In this document: positions 1,941 to 13,499 of the stretch, in pieces
Numbering within the stretch: position 1 is the stretch's first letter
How the letters are laid out: the number at the start of each line of letters is the position of its first letter
Assembly: GCF_001306055.1 (NCBI RefSeq)
Contig: NZ_LGHJ01000018.1
Span: forward strand, 97,943-129,942
Direction of reading: 5' to 3'
Length of the DNA stretch: 32,000 bases
From: Bellilinea caldifistulae
GTDB lineage: Bacteria > Chloroflexota > Anaerolineae > Anaerolineales > Anaerolineaceae
Made by a program: the position numbers and the translations under genes
Notes under the pieces: model-generated
Databases searched by the model: none
Seen by the model: only the letters and a program-made list of their open reading frames with translations
Told to the model about the DNA's origin: nothing

Positions 1941-2699
1941 ATGCGTACACCTTTGATTGCTGGAAATTGGAAGATGAACAAAACTGTGGAACAGGCACGC
2001 GCGCTGGTAGCCGAAATGTTACCCGGTTTGCAAGCGGTTCCGTCGGTCGAGCGGGTGCTTTGTCCGCCGTTTACGGCGCTGATGCCCATTTCAGCCATGC
2101 TGGTAGGGACAGAGATTGGACTGGGGGCGCAAAACATGCACTGGGAAGCCCAGGGAGCCTTTACGGGTGAGATTTCACCAGGGATGGTTAAGGAATTTTG
2201 TCAGTACGTCATTTTAGGGCACTCTGAACGACGCACCTATTTTGGTGAAACCGATCAGACGGTTAACAAAAAAGTTCATGCCGCACTGGCAAACCAGTTA
2301 ATTCCGATTGTGTGTGTGGGAGAAACTCTGGAAGAAAACGAAGCTGGTCGAACTGCGGAAGTGGTTGCCCGTCAGGTTTGTGATGGATTGAAGGATGTAT
2401 CCAAAGATCAGGCCGCCAAGCTGGTGATTGCCTACGAACCGGTTTGGGCAATTGGCACCGGCAGGGCAGCCAGCGGTGAAGTGGCCAATCGGGTGCTGGC
2501 CGAAATTATTCGCCCGGCGTTGGCAGGTCTGTTTGATACGCCAACAGCCCAAAAAATTAGAATTCTATATGGCGGTTCGGTCACGGCCGCGAACGCCCAA
2601 GAGTTTTTTGGTCAACCTGAAATTGATGGCGCATTAGTGGGCGGCGCCAGCCTCAAACCGGCTGAGTTTGTCAATATCGCCATTGCTGCTGCAAAGTGA
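1941..2699 (+). CDS. tpiA: Triosephosphate isomerase
   Basis: Motifs IAGNWKMN, GHSERR, AYEPVWAIGTG and YGGSV. SD GGAGGG lies 4 nt upstream of the ATG. Confidence 0.95.
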   Translation: MRTPLIAGNWKMNKTVEQARALVAEMLPGLQAVPSVERVLCPPFTALMPISAMLVGTEIGLGAQNMHWEAQGAFTGEISPGMVKEFCQYVILGHSERRTYFGETDQTVNKKVHAALANQLIPIVCVGETLEENEAGRTAEVVARQVCDGLKDVSKDQAAKLVIAYEPVWAIGTGRAASGEVANRVLAEIIRPALAGLFDTPTAQKIRILYGGSVTAANAQEFFGQPEIDGALVGGASLKPAEFVNIAIAAAK

Positions 2700-3448
2700 G
2701 TTGGTTTCAACCCTATAGCGGGCTGATATTTTTTGTTCTAAGTCTGCTGATGTATCTGGTGGTGCAGCGCAGGCTGCACCGCGAGATACAGGGGGTTTTT
2801 CTTCTGTTGACGCGCAGCCCGGCGCTGGCTTTAGGGCTGTTTGCCTTGTTGTTCTTTCCCGGTGTTTTGATCCATGAAGCCAGTCACTGGATTATTGCCA
2901 AACTGGTGGGTGTACGCACCGGAAAATTTTCACTCATTCCGCAATTGCAGCCGGATGGCACTTTGCGATTGGGATATGTTGAAGCAGCGCCGGCGGATGT
3001 CTTCCGTGAGACTTTAATTGGAGCAGCTCCTTTTATGAGCGGTGTGCTGACCGTTGGCTGGATTGCTCTTTTCCCTTTGAAGATCATGTCCTTTGGGCAA
3101 ATCCAATCTGTCGCAAGTTTTTGGAGCGCTCTGGCCGAAATGGTCAGCCTGCCGGATTTTTGGTTGTGGTTTTATCTGGCATTTACAATCAGTTCCACCA
3201 TGCTGCCTTCGGCATCGGATCGGCGTGCATGGCTGCCAGCCCTGTTGATCATCAGTATGATTTTGTTGATTTTTCTGTTGGCCGGTGCGGGCGATTGGTT
3301 GTTAGCCATGGTGGAGCCAATCAATCGAATTCTGAGCGCGTTAGCTCTTGTCTTTGTATTTTCCTTGCTGCTGCATGTATGTTTGATTCTGCCTTTCTGG
3401 CTCTTGCGCAGGTTCCTGAGCCGGATCACTGGCTTGGAGGTAATTTGA
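2696..3448 (+). CDS. Polytopic membrane protein with HExxH motif (M50/M50B-like putative intramembrane zinc metalloprotease)
   Basis: Several hydrophobic segments. HEASH (LIHEASHWIIAKLVG) is embedded at the end of a TM segment, as in site-2-protease-like families. The GTG start overlaps the tpiA stop (GTGA). The start is uncertain; an alternative ATG is at 2750. Confidence 0.55.
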   Translation: MSWFQPYSGLIFFVLSLLMYLVVQRRLHREIQGVFLLLTRSPALALGLFALLFFPGVLIHEASHWIIAKLVGVRTGKFSLIPQLQPDGTLRLGYVEAAPADVFRETLIGAAPFMSGVLTVGWIALFPLKIMSFGQIQSVASFWSALAEMVSLPDFWLWFYLAFTISSTMLPSASDRRAWLPALLIISMILLIFLLAGAGDWLLAMVEPINRILSALALVFVFSLLLHVCLILPFWLLRRFLSRITGLEVI

Positions 3449-7339: not shown

Positions 7340-7861
7340 ATGACTAAAAAGAGTTTACAATGGGCGCAACCACCTGCGATGCAGATTGACCCCAAAAAAC
7401 ACTACACGGCAACCTTTGTGACTGAAAAGGGGGATATTATTGTCCGCTTACACGCGGACAAGGTTCCCAAAACTGTGAACAATTTTGTCTTTCTTGCTCG
7501 CCAGGGTTTTTATGATGATACGATTTTTCATCGGGTAATTGATGATTTCATGGCCCAAGGCGGAGATCCAACCGGAACGGGCAGGGGCGGGCCGGGCTAT
7601 CGCTTTGAGGATGAATTCCATCCCGACCTGAAGCATGATAAACCCGGCATTCTCTCGATGGCGAACGCTGGCCCGAATACCAACGGTTCTCAGTTTTTCA
7701 TTACCCACGTGCCAACACCATGGCTGGATAACCGTCATGCCGTATTTGGTGAGGTCATTGCGGGAATGGACGTGCTCCTGTCCATCCCTGCCCGTGATCC
7801 AATGAAAGTCAACAGCCCGGCTGTACGTTTGAAAACCGTGACGATCAACGAAGAGGATTGA
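7340..7861 (+). CDS. ppiB: Peptidyl-prolyl cis-trans isomerase, cyclophilin type (cytoplasmic)
   Basis: Motifs [15 protein letters not shown] and [26 protein letters not shown] upstream. No signal peptide. Confidence 0.9.
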
Positions 7862-7868
7862 GCCTTTC

Positions 7869-8549
7869 TTGACTGTGCAACGAGATTTATGGGAGCAGTT
7901 GAATCGGGAAATTATTGGCTGCCGGCGCTGCCCGCGGTTGGTGGAATGGCGCGAGCAGGTGGCGCGGGAGCGCCGACGTGCTTTTGCAGATTGGGAATAT
8001 TGGGGAAAACCGGTTCCGGGATTTGGGGATACTCAAGCGCGGGTGTTGATTGTCGGGCTGGCACCCGGTGCTCACGGTTCAAACCGTACCGGCAGAATGT
8101 TCACTGGTGATTCTTCCGGTGATTTTCTTTACAGGGCTTTGTATGAAGCCGGTTTTGCCAGCCAACCCACCGCAAATCATCAGGGAGACGGATTGAAGCT
8201 ACAGGATGTTTTCATTACGGCGGTATGTCGCTGCGCTCCACCGGATAACCGTCCCCTCACAGAGGAAATTCTCAATTGCCAGCCGTATCTGGTACAAGAA
8301 TTGCGTCTGCTCAGCCAGCTGGAGGGAATTGTTGCATTGGGGCGAATCGCTTTTGAGCGGGTTCAAAAAATCCTGCGGCCCGAAAATCCACTGCTACCAT
8401 TTCGGCATGGGGCATTTTATAAACCGGTAGATCATTTACCCTGGTTGCTGGCTTCGTACCATCCCAGCCGGCAGAACACTCAAACCGGGAGGCTCACGCC
8501 AGCAATGTTTGCGGGTATCTGGCAGCGGGTGAGGGAAGAACTCGGTTAA
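7869..8549 (+). CDS. Uracil-DNA glycosylase superfamily protein, family 5 (UdgB)-like with Fe-S cysteines
   Basis: CRRCPRL near the N-terminus, motif A GLAPGAHGSNRTGRMFTGD, further Cys in CRCAPP and NC, motif B SYHPSRQN. TTG start; a GTG at 7875 is an alternative. Confidence 0.8.
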   Translation: MTVQRDLWEQLNREIIGCRRCPRLVEWREQVARERRRAFADWEYWGKPVPGFGDTQARVLIVGLAPGAHGSNRTGRMFTGDSSGDFLYRALYEAGFASQPTANHQGDGLKLQDVFITAVCRCAPPDNRPLTEEILNCQPYLVQELRLLSQLEGIVALGRIAFERVQKILRPENPLLPFRHGAFYKPVDHLPWLLASYHPSRQNTQTGRLTPAMFAGIWQRVREELG

Positions 8550-9313
8550 GCGGGTTTTTGGGCGAAAAACCACACCCGTCCGGAGTCAGGTTGTGCCGGA
8601 CTTTGGTCGCTCAGGTTACCAAGCCGATCCAGAACGCGAAAGCCAACCTTTTCCAATAGCGCTTGAATGGTGTCCATCGGATAGGCTCTTTGGGTGTGTA
8701 TCTCTTCCCAGCGTTCCCATTGTTGGGTTTGATGATTGCGAATAAACAGGATTATGCGCAGCGATGCTTCGCTCTTCTCGTAATTACATGAAGGGATGTG
8801 AATTTCTAACAGGTCTTCATTGTCTTGAGGAATGTAAACGGGTTGTTGCTGCCAGCGTACAAAAAGTCCGTAAAGGGTGTTCATATCAAACAGAAACCCT
8901 CCTTTGGCTTTCAGGGCGCGGAATACACGCCTGAAAACATTTTCTAAGTCGCTCACTTCCAGCAGATAATTCATGCTATCGAACCAGCAAGTAACCAGAT
9001 CAAACTCATTGTCGAAATCTAAATTGCGCATATCGTCCTGAATCAGATGAAAAGGCTGGCCGGTTTGTCTTAAGCGCATTTCCGCCAGGCGAAGCATCTC
9101 TGCAGATTGATCCAGTCCAGTTACCTGCCAGTTGTTCAACAGCATCCCTTCCAGGAAGGTGCCTTCGCCGCAAGCAAGGTCAAGTAGCTTGCCGGATTTC
9201 GGCAAGGAAAATTTTTCCAAAAGGGATGGCAACAAGCTGAGCACCCATTTTGAAAATTCCGGGTAAGAACCGCGGCTATATACTTCCGCAAATCGTTGGT
9301 AAATTTGGTTCAT
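8546..9313 (-). CDS. Class I SAM-dependent methyltransferase
   Basis: Motif I LLDLACGEGTF, plus post-I GLDQS and motif II-like FDLVTCWFDSMNY. The substrate is not inferable. Confidence 0.75.
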   Translation of the reverse strand: MNQIYQRFAEVYSRGSYPEFSKWVLSLLPSLLEKFSLPKSGKLLDLACGEGTFLEGMLLNNWQVTGLDQSAEMLRLAEMRLRQTGQPFHLIQDDMRNLDFDNEFDLVTCWFDSMNYLLEVSDLENVFRRVFRALKAKGGFLFDMNTLYGLFVRWQQQPVYIPQDNEDLLEIHIPSCNYEKSEASLRIILFIRNHQTQQWERWEEIHTQRAYPMDTIQALLEKVGFRVLDRLGNLSDQSPAQPDSGRVWFFAQKPA

Positions 9314-9361
9314 ATTGGGATTCCTGATGAATAGTTTGTAAAACCTTTGTACAATTATATC

Positions 9362-9390
9362 TTGTTCCTGCTGACGGGGTGGTTTAGAAT
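9362..9390 (+). promoter_or_regulatory. Candidate sigma70-type promoter TTGTTC-17 nt-TAGAAT for the hydrolase/Prx operon (leaderless)
   Basis: -35 TTGTTC at 9362-9367, a 17-nt spacer, and -10 TAGAAT at 9385-9390. The predicted +1 (7 nt after the hexamer) is 9397, the A of the ATG. Confidence 0.5.
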
Positions 9391-9396
9391 GAAGGT

Positions 9397-10155
9397 ATGA
9401 AAAACCGAAAACTACTCTTTCTCATTCCAGTTGTTCTAATCCTGATCATTTTTAGCGGGTTTTCGATATGGGCTTACACTCCCTTAGGCCCAATGCCAGA
9501 GGCTCGCGCAGCGTTGATTAGCGATGATCAGGTTCAGATTCAACCGCAAGATGATTGGTGGATATTTACTCCCGTTGGGGATCAGGTTTCTAGAGGTTTG
9601 ATCATTTACCCGGGTGGAAGAGTGGACTGGCGCTCTTACGCGCCCCTTGCCAGAGCCATCGCTCAACGCGGCAACCTGGTTGCGTTGGTGCCGATGCCAT
9701 TCAATCTAGCGGTTTTTTCACCTCAAAAAGGTTTGGAAATCATCCAGGCAAATCCCCAGATTGCTTACTGGGCAATTGGGGGGCATTCCCTGGGGGGTGC
9801 TATGGCGGCCAATTTTGTTTTTCAAAACTCCGGATTGGTACAGGGCTTAGTCTTGTGGGCTTCATACCCGGCAGAGAATAATTCTCTGAGCAATGTGCCG
9901 GTCAAGGTGATTTCAATATATGGGAGTGAGGATGGACTGGCGACGGTAGATGTCGTGGAAGCCTCTCGCGCCCTCCTGCCGCCGGATACCCATTGGGTTC
10001 AAATTGCTGGAGGGAATCACGCTCAATTTGGCTGGTATGGAGATCAGCCCGGTGATGGGGAAGCGCTGATCAGCCGTGAAGACCAGCAACTGATCGTTGT
10101 GGAGGAAACAGCACGCTTTCTGGAAAAAATTTCTTTCCATGGGGTGGACAAATGA
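9397..10155 (+). CDS. Membrane-anchored alpha/beta hydrolase
   Basis: N-terminal TM anchor LLFLIPVVLILIIFSGFSIW. Nucleophile elbow GHSLGG, a conserved Asp (SEDG) and a late His (GGNHAQF). Confidence 0.75.
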   Translation: MKNRKLLFLIPVVLILIIFSGFSIWAYTPLGPMPEARAALISDDQVQIQPQDDWWIFTPVGDQVSRGLIIYPGGRVDWRSYAPLARAIAQRGNLVALVPMPFNLAVFSPQKGLEIIQANPQIAYWAIGGHSLGGAMAANFVFQNSGLVQGLVLWASYPAENNSLSNVPVKVISIYGSEDGLATVDVVEASRALLPPDTHWVQIAGGNHAQFGWYGDQPGDGEALISREDQQLIVVEETARFLEKISFHGVDK

Positions 10156-11120
10156 AACCGTTGCGACTGATTGGATTGTTTCTGCTGGTTGCTTTGCTGG
10201 TTGTCATCATTGGGCCGCTGATCATACCTGTACCACCTTTACCCGATGCCGTTCCCGTGACAGCACTGATGGACGATGACAGCCGTTTTGTCGAGGTCAA
10301 AGGGATTGATGTGCATTACAAACAATATGGCAGCGGTGAACCAGTGATGATTTTATTGCACGGTTTTGGGGCAAGCACCTTCTCATGGCGCGAGGTGATG
10401 CAGCCACTCGCCCAGTATGGGACGGTGATTGCTTTCGACCGGCCGGCTTTTGGTCTGACGGAGCGCCCGATGCCCGGCGAGTGGTCAGGAGAATCACCCT
10501 ATACCCTTAATTCCCAAATCCAATTGTTGATGGGTTTGATGGATCAGTTAGGCATCGAACGTGCGGTGTTGATCGGAAATTCGGCGGGCGGTACCGTGGC
10601 TGCTGCGGCGGCGTTGGCCTATCCTGAGCGGGTAAGCGCTCTGGTATTGGTGGATGCGGCGATTTATGCTGGCGGGGGTGCCCCGGCCTGGATTCGTCCA
10701 CTTCTGCGAACGCCTCAATTTGACCGTCTGGGTCCATGGTTTGCGCGTTCAATTGCCGGTGAGCAGGGGGATGCCTTCCTTCGGGCTGCCTGGCATGACC
10801 CTTCCAAAATCACCGAGGATATCATTCAGGGTTACCGCAAGCCTTTACAACTGGCTAATTGGGATCGGGCTTTATGGGAGTTAACCAAAGCCAGCGGCGA
10901 ATCCCAACTTGCGGGTCGGTTGAAGGAATTATCCATGCCGGTGCTGGTCGTAACCGGCGACGATGACAGGATTGTGCCAACTGCCGAGAGTTTGCGGCTG
11001 GCAAATGATATTCCCGGCGCAAAACTGGCTGTTTTTCCAGATTGTGGTCACGTCCCTCAGGAAGAGTGTCCGCAGTCGTTTTTGGAGGCAGTCGTTGGTT
11101 TTTTATCAGAAATTAAGTAA
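10152..11120 (+). CDS. Membrane-anchored alpha/beta hydrolase (fold-1 family)
   Basis: N-terminal TM anchor. Oxyanion motif HGFGAS, nucleophile GNSAGG, GDDDRIVP and CGHVPQEE (catalytic triad S-D-H). ATGA overlap with the upstream hydrolase. Confidence 0.8.
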   Translation: MKPLRLIGLFLLVALLVVIIGPLIIPVPPLPDAVPVTALMDDDSRFVEVKGIDVHYKQYGSGEPVMILLHGFGASTFSWREVMQPLAQYGTVIAFDRPAFGLTERPMPGEWSGESPYTLNSQIQLLMGLMDQLGIERAVLIGNSAGGTVAAAAALAYPERVSALVLVDAAIYAGGGAPAWIRPLLRTPQFDRLGPWFARSIAGEQGDAFLRAAWHDPSKITEDIIQGYRKPLQLANWDRALWELTKASGESQLAGRLKELSMPVLVVTGDDDRIVPTAESLRLANDIPGAKLAVFPDCGHVPQEECPQSFLEAVVGFLSEIK

Positions 11121-11136
11121 CAAGGAGAATGGACAT

Positions 11137-11619
11137 ATGACAAAGCAATTAAAAACAAACATTCCAGCCCCCGATTTTGAAGGAGTAGATACCCGCGGAA
11201 ATACTGTGCAATTGTCCGACTTTCGCGGTAGAAAAATTATTGTTTTGGTTTTCAACCGCGGGTTTATGTGACCATATTGCGTGAAGCATTTGGCGCAGTT
11301 GCGTCAGGATTACGATGAGTTCACCCGTCGAGGTGCTGAAATTATTGCGTTAGGGCCGGATGGCCCACGTGCCTATCAGAGATTTTGGGAGTTGGAGAAT
11401 ATGCCGTTCATCGGAATGCCCGATATCCGTTCGAAAATTGCGGATAGCTATTATCAGGAAGTCAATTTGCTCAAACTGGGCAGGATGCCGGCGGTGTTCG
11501 TGATTGATAAAAACGGGATCATACGATACAAGCATTATGCTTCCTCGATGTCGGATATTCCACAGAATGAAGAAGTCTTAAGGGTTATTGATCAAATCAA
11601 TGAGGAGCGGTATGAGTAA
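11137..11619 (+). CDS. Peroxiredoxin-like (AhpC/TSA, PRX_like2-type) thiol:disulfide oxidoreductase with in-frame TGA; candidate selenoprotein (UxxC)
   Basis: AAGGAG SD at 11122-11127 and ATG at 11137. Track ORFs 10963..11271 and 11281..11619 are in the same frame and separated only by the TGA at 11269-11271. The joined protein reads ...KIIVLVFNRGFM-U-PYCVKHLAQLRQDYDEF..., so the TGA occupies the first Cys of the family's CxxC motif. The 3' end overlaps the SDR start. Confidence 0.75.
11281..11324 (+). promoter_or_regulatory. Candidate bacterial SECIS element
   Basis: Hand-folded structure. Lower stem: GUGAA (11281-11285) pairs with UUCAC (11320-11324). Upper 8-bp stem: 11289-11296 pairs with 11301-11308 (UUUGGCGC / GCGUCAGG, including 3 G-U pairs). 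The apical loop AGUU (11297-11300) begins 26 nt after the UGA and has G at loop position 2. Confidence 0.45.
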
Positions 11620-12244
11620 GACGGCATTAATCTGGGGAGTAACAGGCGGAATTGGCTCTGCGCTGGCAAAATTATTAGCGAAGGAGGGCTGGCAGGTTGC
11701 AGGTACGGCGAGAGATGAAATACAGGCTCGCCGAATTGTCCCCTTAGCCTTTGAGGTGGATGTTGCTAATCCATTTTCTGTGCGGGAAGGTGTGGCTGCC
11801 ATTGCGCAGGAAATTATCAGCGTGGATTGGTGGGTTTTCGCAATCGGTGATATACTTTCAAAATCGGTCAGCGAGATGAGTGATGTGGAATGGCAGAAAA
11901 TCTTAAACGCCAATTTGAACGGCGTTTTTTATGCAATCCACGAAAGTCAGGCACTCTTGAGTGACGGAGCGCCGGTTTACATCCTGGGGGCAGTCAGTGA
12001 ACGAATGCGCCTTCCCGGTTTAGCGGCGTATGCTGCTGCAAAAGCCGGGGTGGAAGCCTTTGCTGAAGTACTGCGCAAGGAAATGAAAAGAACCGTTGTG
12101 GTTGTAAGGCCGGGAGCGGTCAACACCGATCTATGGAAAAAGGTACCCTTTCGGCTACCCGCTAATGCACTCAACGCAGAAGATTTGGCTCGAAAGATGT
12201 ATTCGGCATATCAAAATAACTATAAAGAATTGTTTTTGGATTAA
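11612..12244 (+). CDS. Short-chain dehydrogenase/reductase (SDR)
   Basis: Cofactor motif GVTGGIGSALA and catalytic YAAAKAG (YxxxK). The ATG at 11612 overlaps the upstream stop by 8 nt (ATGAGTAA). Confidence 0.85.
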   Translation: MSKTALIWGVTGGIGSALAKLLAKEGWQVAGTARDEIQARRIVPLAFEVDVANPFSVREGVAAIAQEIISVDWWVFAIGDILSKSVSEMSDVEWQKILNANLNGVFYAIHESQALLSDGAPVYILGAVSERMRLPGLAAYAAAKAGVEAFAEVLRKEMKRTVVVVRPGAVNTDLWKKVPFRLPANALNAEDLARKMYSAYQNNYKELFLD

Positions 12245-12245
12245 C

Positions 12246-13499
12246 ATGGTTTGGGATTATCAGCATCTGATTTCCAGACGGCTGCTGTTGTGGAGTTCAA
12301 TCAGCATCGTCGTGTCGGGATTGGTCTTTGGTCGGGGGGATTTTTGGCGCGGCTTTGCCATTCAGGCATTGGTGTGGGCAGCGGTGGACGCAATAATTGC
12401 CGTGTTTGGCTTGCGTTCTTCCTTGCCGCGCCTTTATCTGCCGGTGGATTTGGCAATCGCAGAGAGAGAAACGAAAAAACTGCGTAAAATTTTATGGATT
12501 AACGCCGGTCTGGATGTCCTTTATATTACCGGAGGCAGTTTGCTTTATATCGCCAACACTGCTTCCGACCCATTTCTGGCCGGTACAGGTGCAGGCATCA
12601 TTCTGCAAGGTGGTTTCTTGCTCCTCTTTGATCTGTGGCATGCGCTTCATACCCCACTGGAAACACGCTTGCCAGATCTGGGCATTTTCAAAGAACCCCA
12701 GCATGATACCACCGACTTAATGGGTGAGCATGGCGGAGCAGTACTGGTGGTACATGGCTTTCCAGGCAGTCCGGCTGAGATGGCTGCGCTGGGAGAGGCT
12801 CTGAACAAAGCCGGCTGGCATGTGCGCCTGTTGCGTTTACCCGGACACGGAACGGCTTTTTCTCAGCTGTTTCAAACCCGCGTCACAGAATGGGTGAGTG
12901 AGGTGGAAAAGAACTTGATGGAGTTGCGCCAGAATTTCTCGCCGGTCTTGCTGATGGGCTATTCTCTTGGCGGGGGGATTTCGATGGCGGTGGCCAGTCG
13001 CAGCAAACCGGATGGTCTGATCCTGCTTTCTCCGTTCTGGAAAGCCGAACCCTGGTGGGTCAAATGGGTGGCGTTACCGGTCAGAACGCTCCTGCCAGTG
13101 TCCATCTATCCTTTTCGGACGCGTTGGCTGAAGCCGGAGCAATTCCGGGCTGCTTCAACCGAACTGCTGCCGGGATTTGATTTGGATGATCCGCAGGTGC
13201 GGCAATCTTTGATGGACATCCGCTTACCCATGGTGTTTTTGGAACAGTTTAGACGGTTGAGCCAGCTGATCATCAGGGGTTTAGCGCATATTCAGGTTCC
13301 AACTCTGGTGGTGCAAGGAAAATACGATCCGGTAGTATCCCCCCAGGGTACGCGGGCTTTGATCCAGCAGATTCATGCACCCCTCCAGTATGTCGAAACG
13401 GAAGGGGATCACAACATAAATCAACGTTCCAACCGCGGCTATGCTGAAACGGAAACCGCTGTACTAAAATTTGCGGCACAGTTTCAAAAATCCGGTTAA
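12246..13499 (+). CDS. Fusion of an N-terminal ~4-TM domain with a C-terminal alpha/beta hydrolase (esterase/lipase-like)
   Basis: The ATG at 12246 is 1 nt after the SDR stop. The first ~165 aa contain about four hydrophobic helices. These are followed by VLVVHGFPGSP, LPGHG, the nucleophile GYSLGG and a late GDHN. Confidence 0.75.
   Translation: MVWDYQHLISRRLLLWSSISIVVSGLVFGRGDFWRGFAIQALVWAAVDAIIAVFGLRSSLPRLYLPVDLAIAERETKKLRKILWINAGLDVLYITGGSLLYIANTASDPFLAGTGAGIILQGGFLLLFDLWHALHTPLETRLPDLGIFKEPQHDTTDLMGEHGGAVLVVHGFPGSPAEMAALGEALNKAGWHVRLLRLPGHGTAFSQLFQTRVTEWVSEVEKNLMELRQNFSPVLLMGYSLGGGISMAVASRSKPDGLILLSPFWKAEPWWVKWVALPVRTLLPVSIYPFRTRWLKPEQFRAASTELLPGFDLDDPQVRQSLMDIRLPMVFLEQFRRLSQLIIRGLAHIQVPTLVVQGKYDPVVSPQGTRALIQQIHAPLQYVETEGDHNINQRSNRGYAETETAVLKFAAQFQKSG

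Follow-up and report, generated by a model that had tools for sequence, protein, structure and literature searches.

A candidate selenocysteine codon followed by a conserved coding-region hairpin in a peroxiredoxin-fold gene of Bellilinea caldifistulae

The locus and its interrupted reading frame

We have analysed a stretch of 32,000 nt from the genome of Bellilinea caldifistulae (assembly GCF_001306055.1, contig NZ_LGHJ01000018.1, positions 97,943 to 129,942 of the forward strand), a member of the Anaerolineaceae in the Chloroflexota. This whole stretch is referred to below as the window, and coordinates are window positions unless another record is named. The object of the study is a gene for a small protein of the AhpC/TSA type, whose reading frame is interrupted by a single UGA that we consider a candidate selenocysteine (Sec) codon, with a candidate selenocysteine insertion sequence (SECIS) inside the coding region just downstream of it. 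The elements of the gene, and its neighbours, are listed in Table 1.

Two open reading frames (ORFs), 10963-11271 and 11281-11619, lie in the same frame, and the only interruption between them is the TGA at 11269-11271; this is how an initial annotation of the same DNA had described them, and the peptide obtained by reading through the TGA, VLVFNRGFM-U-PYCVKHLAQLRQDYDEFTRRGAEIIALGPD, reproduces exactly the one given there. The 5' limit of the gene had to be revised. While the frame of the first ORF is correct, position 10963 falls within the upstream hydrolase gene and was rejected as a start in favor of the ATG at 11137, which is located 16 nt past the TAA of that hydrolase gene (11118-11120) and is preceded by a Shine-Dalgarno sequence. 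From this ATG the read-through product is MTKQ...VLVFNRGFM-U-PYCVKHLAQLRQDY...EERYE, with 160 residues, the length that had been anticipated (about 160 aa). Also as initially proposed, the UGA occupies the first position of a CxxC-type motif in an AhpC/TSA-type protein, where full-length homologs carry Cys, and the 3' half has no Shine-Dalgarno sequence of its own, none being recognizable ahead of the GTG at 11281.

Table 1. Elements of the candidate selenoprotein gene and neighbouring genes (window positions).
Feature	Position	Strand	Remarks
Complete candidate selenoprotein gene	11137..11619	+	160 codons plus TAA (11617-11619); AhpC/TSA fold; motif R-G-F-M-U45-P-Y-C48
In-frame UGA, candidate Sec codon	11269..11271	+	Residue 45
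Cys48 codon, second residue of UxxC	11278..11280	+	Invariant in 80 sequences; TGC in 96%
Shine-Dalgarno sequence AAGGAG	11122..11127	+	9 nt 5' of the start codon; read from the sequence
Candidate bacterial SECIS hairpin	11289..11308	+	Arms 11290-11296 and 11301-11307; apical loop AGUU 11297-11300
Small upstream hairpin UGC-GUGAA-GCA	11278..11288	+	Nt 10-20 after the U of the UGA; folds in the window, L088 and L089
Putative lower tier, 3' arm (pairs with 11281-11285)	11320..11324	+	Forms here; not conserved
Two alpha/beta-hydrolase genes (9397-10155, 10152-11120)	9397..11120	+	Conserved upstream neighbours; Pfam labels
Short-chain dehydrogenase	11612..12244	+	ATG overlaps the last codons of the candidate selenoprotein gene
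DUF6992 N-terminal part fused to an alpha/beta-hydrolase domain	12246..13499	+	Last gene of the cluster

The treatment of this gene in public databases is instructive. Window positions 3554-24843 are the same, in all 21,290 bases, as positions 1,741,873-1,763,162 of the B. caldifistulae record DF967971.1 (GCA_001050215.2), and both GenBank and RefSeq split the gene in two: a fragment of 44 aa (11137-11271; GAP10456.1/WP_169787313.1), labelled 'peroxiredoxin', and one of 112 aa (11281-11619; GAP10457.1/WP_157235476.1), labelled 'peroxiredoxin family protein'. A third record carries a version of 106 aa. Of the 243 close homologs retrieved by a protein search, the best 120 include about 100 fragments, 100-117 aa long, with a common start (MAQLRQDY...), which is the pattern left by gene callers that halt at a shared TGA. 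The few full-length homologs have either C-P-x-C or W-P-x-C at the motif. There are seven full-length homologs with Cys, and in the four whose codon was read in the DNA it is TGT or TGC. Trp is found at the Sec position in the public proteins P0018, P0019, P0022, P0028 and P0064. For two 'W' proteins the DNA was checked (loci L088 and L089) and in both the codon is TGA; here the 'W' is apparently an artefact of gene callers that used genetic code 4 on short contigs, and artefacts of this type disguise selenoproteins as 'full-length' Trp proteins.

Constraint on the UGA and on both sides of it

To find orthologs, one genome of each GTDB species was scanned; this gave at least 587 related loci, and the comparison is based on the best 80 of them. 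At the position of 11269-11271, 79 of these 80 species-level orthologs from Chloroflexota have TGA and the remaining one has TGT, so that Sec (TGA) forms far outnumber Cys forms. The set takes in the cultured Ornatilinea apprima and Leptolinea tardivitalis, and the protein is kept in it on both sides of the TGA, with the pattern APDF...LSDFRGKK.VVLVFNRGF.-U-P[FY]C. The base that follows the UGA (C at +4) is invariant in the aligned orthologs. In the comparison with the closest species (L001), the ratio of nonsynonymous to synonymous substitution rates (dN/dS) is 0.07 for the 42 codons 5' of the TGA, and again 0.07 for the 92 codons 3' of the hairpin described in the next section.

A reassignment of TGA to Trp or Gly is ruled out, as TGA terminates 12 of the 29 long ORFs in the window and is therefore an ordinary stop codon in this genome; the 'W' of the databases is, as said, a gene-caller artefact. 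Taken together, the retention of TGA in 79 of 80 orthologs, the purifying selection on its two sides and the normal use of TGA as a stop cannot be reconciled with a pseudogene, a sequencing error or a reassigned code as the source of the interruption. These results bear out the initial annotation in its argument against a dead pseudogene, and in its expectation that the homologs would have Cys or Sec in this column, which indeed contains either TGA or a Cys codon.

The same TGA and hairpin were observed in two loci from bins labelled otherwise, L011 (Ignavibacteriae) and L029 (Proteobacteria), with respectively 67% and 54% identity to the window protein. Either the contigs in question come from Anaerolineae and were mis-binned, or the gene was transferred horizontally.

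A candidate SECIS hairpin in the coding region

The segment 11289-11308 folds into a 7-bp stem with a free energy of −8.9 kcal/mol and a z-score of −4.7 with respect to dinucleotide shuffles, none of the 200 shuffles being as good. If hairpin nucleotides are numbered from the U of the UGA (nt 1), as was done throughout the family comparison, the AGUU loop begins at nt 29, which places it 26 nt past the A of the UGA, with 25 intervening nt, and its second position is a G; both the distance and the loop G are as they had been initially reported. The model of bacterial SECIS (bSECIS) elements given in a 2026 review has a loop of 3-9 nt, a stem of 4-16 bp, a UGA-loop spacing of 16-37 nt and a minimum free energy (MFE) of −7.5 kcal/mol or lower, with a G within the first two loop positions that is usually followed by G or U (PMC13188914). 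The window hairpin agrees with this model on every point (loop of 4 nt, 7 bp, G at position 2, spacing of 25 nt, and the energy given above), so that what the initial annotation stated on the rules for spacing and loop G is in line with the published model. More generally, the hairpin shares with the bSECIS consensus its position in the ORF just 3' of the UGA, its small loop and the G-U at loop positions 2-3.

The classic example of a bacterial SECIS is that of E. coli fdhF, in which the essential mini-helix, with its bulged U, begins some 11 nt past the UGA. The geometry in B. caldifistulae is different: the stem starts about 18 nt after the UGA, there is no bulge, and a second small hairpin is found in the gap. 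Of 77 distinct sequences, 76-77 retain the pairs 10:20 and 11:19 of this small hairpin, a feature absent from the initial annotation, and 69 retain the pair 12:18; in the corresponding stretch (11275-11288) codons +2 to +5 (TTC, TGC, CGC, CGG) are frozen at synonymous sites.

The structure had originally been drawn as a hairpin with two tiers. Its upper tier is the significant stem described above, and this part of the proposal stands. The lower tier (11281-11285 paired with 11320-11324) does form in the window sequence, but it is not conserved, because synonymous variation is normal from codon +13 onward, and it is probably not part of the element.

The specificity of the combination can be judged from a scan, on both strands, of the 1.26 Mb that comprise all the DNA fetched: a TGA followed by an AGUU-loop hairpin, with an open frame on both sides, occurs at 73 sites, and all of them are this gene.

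The hairpin in related species

The hairpin has left a mark in the family at synonymous sites. Elsewhere in the gene the third-base entropy at most four-fold sites is 1.4-2.0 bits (80 sequences), and the family-wide synonymous difference, which is 0.75 and 0.78 in the flanks, drops to 0.43 over the 12 codons that follow the TGA. Within codons +2 to +10 a single codon dominates at one amino acid after the other: Phe is TTC in 98%, Cys TGC in 96%, Arg CGG in 92%, Ala GCG in 95%, Gln CAG in 100% and Leu TTG in 95%. The bases frozen in this way are UGGCGC-AGUU-GCG(C/U)CA, corresponding to a hairpin of 6-8 bp; with 8 possible pairs, that of B. caldifistulae is among the more stable versions. Under strict bSECIS rules, which demand a contiguous stem, 62 of 82 TGA forms pass, versus 6.5% of control anchors placed in the same genes, and pairing amounts to 84.7% in register versus 51% or less if one partner is displaced by 1-3 columns.

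Individual substitutions that keep the stem can also be recognized. The pair G24:C37 has become C:G in 4 distinct sequences, the pair 25:36 has gone from G:C to A:U in one, and compensatory stem changes are present in L025, L047, L039 and L088; the change of G24:C37 to C:G is seen in L020, one of the atypical cases mentioned below. As an example, L088 has UGAUGC-AGUU-GCAUCA, in which two pairs are changed on both sides, with Ala and Arg replaced by Met and His, and with hairpin and loop both kept.

Seven species (L040, L046, L059, L066, L069, L070, L071) have a relocated hairpin, GCGCGC-AGUUG-GCGCGC, at nt 14-30. It is 9 nt closer to the UGA (spacing of 16 versus 25 nt) and is encoded in other codons (motif UPYCRAQLARLR), with a protein alignment that is free of gaps; in this sub-clade the hairpin is placed 10 nt after the UGA.

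Atypical hairpins were noted in the TGA species L017 (Ornatilinea apprima), L020, L031 and L036/L038, one form being a 6-bp stem with a loop of 8 nt, CAGGUUGA or CCGCCUGC. Such cases would help to define the actual requirements of the local SelB.

The Cys forms are orthologs of the TGA forms, since they share the same synteny, and in 4 of the 5 that were read there is no hairpin. The Cys form L086 (1001-1495; codon TGC) keeps a stem UGGCGC...GCGCCG, with AGCU in place of AGUU as the loop; it looks like the relic of a recent change from Sec to Cys. That Cys forms descended from Sec forms may retain remnants of a SECIS-like structure was known earlier (PMC1794560).

Family assignment and structural relationships

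With Cys substituted for Sec, the read-through protein matches over its whole length the Pfam family AhpC-TSA (PF00578; E = 9.4e-26, 90.6 bits versus a cut-off of 26), and it also matches Redoxin (E = 7e-21), so that the peroxiredoxin-like label it had initially received is appropriate. None of the NCBIfam models attains its curated cut-off. The top match is NF040769, 'SelL-related redox protein', whose 66.6 bits are below membership (cut-off of 120) and whose likeness extends over the N-terminal half of the B. caldifistulae protein, including the redox motif; ResA (NF002854) is likewise below membership, with 51.1 bits versus a cut-off of 170.

Structural comparisons were carried out with a model of the Cys ortholog P0002, which is 59% identical to the B. 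caldifistulae protein. The model (predicted local distance difference test score, pLDDT, of 94.3) consists of one compact domain with the peroxiredoxin fold, in which residue 45 directly precedes a helix (46-57). Its best matches in the PDB are Bcp4 and Bcp1 of Sulfolobus and AhpE of M. tuberculosis (3hjp, 3drn, 4x0x), with template modelling (TM) scores of 0.85-0.88; proteins of the Bcp/PrxQ and AhpE type (3hjp, 3drn, 2ywn, 1xvw) are also the best matches in sequence (E = 1e-14 to 1e-12). The active sites, however, differ: the P-x-x-x-T-x-x-C of those enzymes is R-G-F-x-U-P-x-C in the B. caldifistulae protein. In the residue alignments to 3drn and 2ywn (Bcp1 and a Sulfolobus Prx) Cys48 coincides with the peroxidatic Cys of Bcp/PrxQ and Sec45 with the conserved Thr of the motif, while the position of the Pro is taken by an invariant Arg (R41) and that of the catalytic Arg of 2ywn by an invariant Pro (P118). 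The protein thus combines a peroxiredoxin fold with the lack of the peroxiredoxin catalytic residues, and its motif is of the thioredoxin/ResA CxxC type. The ResA/TlpA proteins (1st9, 3c71) resemble the B. caldifistulae protein in having a CxxC-type motif at the N-terminus of a helix and a related fold (TM score of 0.74; E = 3e-8), but the overall fold of the latter is nearer to the peroxiredoxins and its score is far under the NCBIfam cut-off for ResA.

In known selenoperoxiredoxins Sec occupies the peroxidatic position and the motif is TxxU (PMC13188914), unlike the UxxC of the B. caldifistulae protein. The closest known group is that of the peroxiredoxin-like (Prx-like) thiol:disulfide oxidoreductase selenoproteins (PF00578, with UxxC or UxxU), which the same review lists as 'predicted with high confidence' under the reference WP_010940744.1 (PMC13188914); these have been a predicted selenoprotein family since the mid-2000s, with 8 members in one study (PMC1794560) and 32 in another (PMC5029168). 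We assigned the gene to this family on the basis of the PF00578 domain and of the UxxC motif (U45-P-Y-C48), and the likeness comprises the AhpC/TSA domain, Sec as the first residue of UxxC, the existence of Cys homologs and a SECIS in the coding region after the UGA. The gene thus very probably belongs to the known Prx-like UxxC selenoproteins; it is systematically mis-annotated, and is not a new kind of system. There is one difference in distribution: in thiol oxidoreductase families of this sort the changes from Cys to Sec recorded in PMC1794560 were mostly sporadic, whereas here Sec forms make up 79 of 80 loci across a class of Chloroflexota. In a search of the literature on selenoproteins of Bellilinea and Anaerolineae we found no paper that mentions this family in Anaerolineae.

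Components of the selenocysteine pathway

As had been stated initially, selA, selB, selD and the gene for tRNA(Sec) are missing from the window: a tRNA scan found no tRNA gene in it, and a Pfam scan of its 20 larger ORFs found no sel gene. When the SelA, SelB and SelD proteins of E. coli were compared by tblastn with the 1.26 Mb fetched, the sole match was a selB in L051, from a Chloroflexota bin. It lies 2.5 kb downstream of the ortholog (7677-9617; E = 9e-65 with E. coli SelB), and NCBI names the homolog 'selenocysteine-specific translation elongation factor'. With this SelB as query, thousands of homologs are retrieved, the named sources being Anaerolineae, Anaerolineales, Dehalococcoidia or Chloroflexi; no SelB labelled B. 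caldifistulae is among the matches listed. A gene for tRNA-SeC with the anticodon UCA is present in L046, from an Anaerolineales bin (3-97, − strand), 6.6 kb from the ortholog, by tRNA-Pro and ruvB. The supplements of PMC5029168 give Anaerolinea thermophila UNI-1 three '+' marks, which we take as SelD, SelA and SelB, and 4 selenoproteins.

Genomic neighbourhood

The candidate selenoprotein gene is the third in a tight cluster of genes on the same strand, in the order hydrolase, hydrolase, candidate selenoprotein gene, dehydrogenase, DUF6992-hydrolase. This arrangement, and in particular the overlap of the next ATG (11612) with the 3' end of the gene, accords with the translationally coupled operon of the initial annotation. 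Among relatives, the conserved upstream neighbours are uracil-DNA glycosylase and the hydrolases, present in 28-36 of the 64 loci with an upstream flank, and enolase, on the other strand, is a conserved downstream neighbour; the neighbouring short-chain dehydrogenase is limited to the Bellilinea group (6 loci). In the window the gene is flanked by three hydrolase genes in all.

Two other features of the window were recorded. An RNase P RNA of class A (272.7 bits) occupies positions 1478-1862 on the − strand, between the genes for an ABC-transporter ATPase and for triosephosphate isomerase. An ORF of 250 aa (2696-3448, + strand), which is also called as a gene by NCBI, overlaps the end of the triosephosphate isomerase gene and has no Pfam match.

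Discussion

The UGA, the reading frame around it and the RNA hairpin that follows it are conserved. In our judgement the UGA at 11269-11271 is very probably a functional Sec codon with its SECIS in the coding region, within the gene of a single 160-residue protein of peroxiredoxin fold; from the comparative evidence we infer that Sec is inserted at this gene and that the hairpin makes contact with SelB. When a ribosome reaches the UGA, the hairpin at 11289-11308, with its AGUU loop, would act as a bacterial SECIS and would bind SelB carrying Sec-tRNA(Sec), so that Sec would be inserted without termination and translation would go on to the TAA at 11617-11619, into the overlapping next gene. 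In the protein, Sec45 would cap the N-terminus of the active-site helix, forming with Cys48 the motif U-P-Y-C. Its place corresponds to the first Cys of the thioredoxin/ResA-type CxxC and to the Thr of true peroxiredoxins, and on this analogy Sec45 would be the N-terminal, attacking residue. The protein most likely works as a thiol:disulfide (selenylsulfide) oxidoreductase, in which the selenolate would attack the oxidised substrate, Cys48 would resolve the intermediate with formation of an intramolecular Se-S bond, and a reductant of the thioredoxin type would restore the enzyme.

A number of observations weigh against this interpretation. There is no selA, selB, selC or selD in about 50 kb around the gene, that is, in the window and 10 kb past each of its ends (DF967971.1 1,730,260-1,780,101, in a genome of 3.7 Mb). 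At the gathering threshold Rfam recognizes in the window only RNase P and no SECIS family, and a permissive Rfam scan of 11200-11400 yields matches at chance level only, again with no SECIS family. The MFE fold of the whole 67 nt from 11269 to 11335 is not the proposed hairpin but a different structure, which is non-significant (z = −1.4). Across the family, 20 of the 82 TGA forms fall short of the strict energy or stem criteria, and about 6 species have clearly atypical hairpins. The covariation score does not rise above that of column shuffles, 115 of 500 of which reach it, and RNAalifold recovers only 4 pairs from the 80 sequences. Finally, it is from homology only that the redox mechanism outlined above can be suggested.

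Some of these points can be qualified. Most of the failures under the strict rules are a G.U variant with −7.3 kcal/mol, 0.2 kcal/mol short of the limit. The covariation score is no better than that of shuffles because the stem is nearly invariant, and given this weak formal covariation the support for the hairpin comes from synonymous freezing, from register, from individual compensatory cases and from the relocated hairpin. As for the folding of 11269-11335, which had been recommended in the initial annotation, the stretch does contain the stable hairpin at 11289-11308, but the structure of the whole stretch, in which the UGA is paired with downstream bases, was rejected as the functional form: besides being non-significant, it cannot be formed by the orthologs, and with the UGA in the A site it would be located within the ribosome.

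Of the alternatives, the one that survives best is that the gene encodes a selenoprotein in the relatives and is dead in B. caldifistulae, where Sec decoding would have been lost, the UGA would terminate translation, and the 3' part would be either untranslated or translated from the GTG at 11281. The annotators' choice of two ORFs and the lack of sel genes and tRNA(Sec) in the 50 kb around the gene are what one would expect in that case. We nevertheless regard it as quite unlikely, considering that both halves of the gene and the hairpin are intact, with strong purifying selection on each side relative to the nearest species, that the window hairpin is one of the more stable in the family, and that the GTG has no Shine-Dalgarno sequence. 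Moreover, lineages that abandoned Sec at this position switched the codon to TGT or TGC, and the family Anaerolineaceae contains a documented Sec user.

A second alternative is that the UGA is recoded with the help of the hairpin, though not to Sec: Cys could be inserted through a pair similar to SelB and tRNA(Sec), or Trp through near-cognate read-through. Sequence data reveal the recoding and its RNA signal, not the identity of the residue; SECIS-dependent insertion of Cys has been described in a few Actinobacteria, and the UGA-C context, which is invariant here, is leaky in E. coli. Against this, a UGA held over hundreds of species, with TGC one step away, is sensible only if the residue is not Cys, and a Trp at the nucleophile position of CxxC would be inactive. 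The factors found near the orthologs also speak for Sec, since the neighbour in L051 and other homologs in Anaerolineae are annotated by NCBI as selenocysteine-specific elongation factors, and the tRNA near the L046 ortholog, with its UCA anticodon, is typed as SeC. Recoding to another amino acid is on these grounds very unlikely. We can dismiss as extremely improbable the idea that the interruption comes from a sequencing or assembly error, or that there are truly two small genes as the 44-aa and 112-aa entries of the databases would have it, because the same two fragments are seen again in B. caldifistulae records and in metagenome contigs of the JGI, 79 of 80 species have the TGA, and the 44 N-terminal residues, half of a thioredoxin fold, would be unable to fold by themselves; the Cys ortholog is modelled as one compact domain.

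If the UGA is indeed decoded as Sec, GAP10456.1/WP_169787313.1 and GAP10457.1/WP_157235476.1 are one protein, and hundreds of genomes and metagenome bins of Anaerolineae and other Chloroflexota have the gene split or truncated in the same manner. With a hairpin that is strongly conserved, that has been relocated in one sub-clade and that decays in the Cys forms, the family provides comparative data on SECIS elements outside of Proteobacteria and Firmicutes. It is tempting, if rather speculative, to consider that one and the same AGUU-loop hairpin functions in this family at either of two distances from the UGA, because the SelB of Chloroflexota tolerates a shift of 9 nt or because the small upstream hairpin belongs to the element, as a component not described before, and reduces the effective distance; were this true, the family would be a natural experiment on bacterial SECIS geometry.

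The current understanding of selenoproteins is not changed by these results. As B. caldifistulae is available in culture, both Sec insertion and the activity of the enzyme are open to direct testing. With a gene that usually follows alpha/beta-hydrolase genes and retains its UGA in all but one of the 80 species compared, the overall picture points to the use of Sec as a standard trait of a large and poorly studied class of bacteria.

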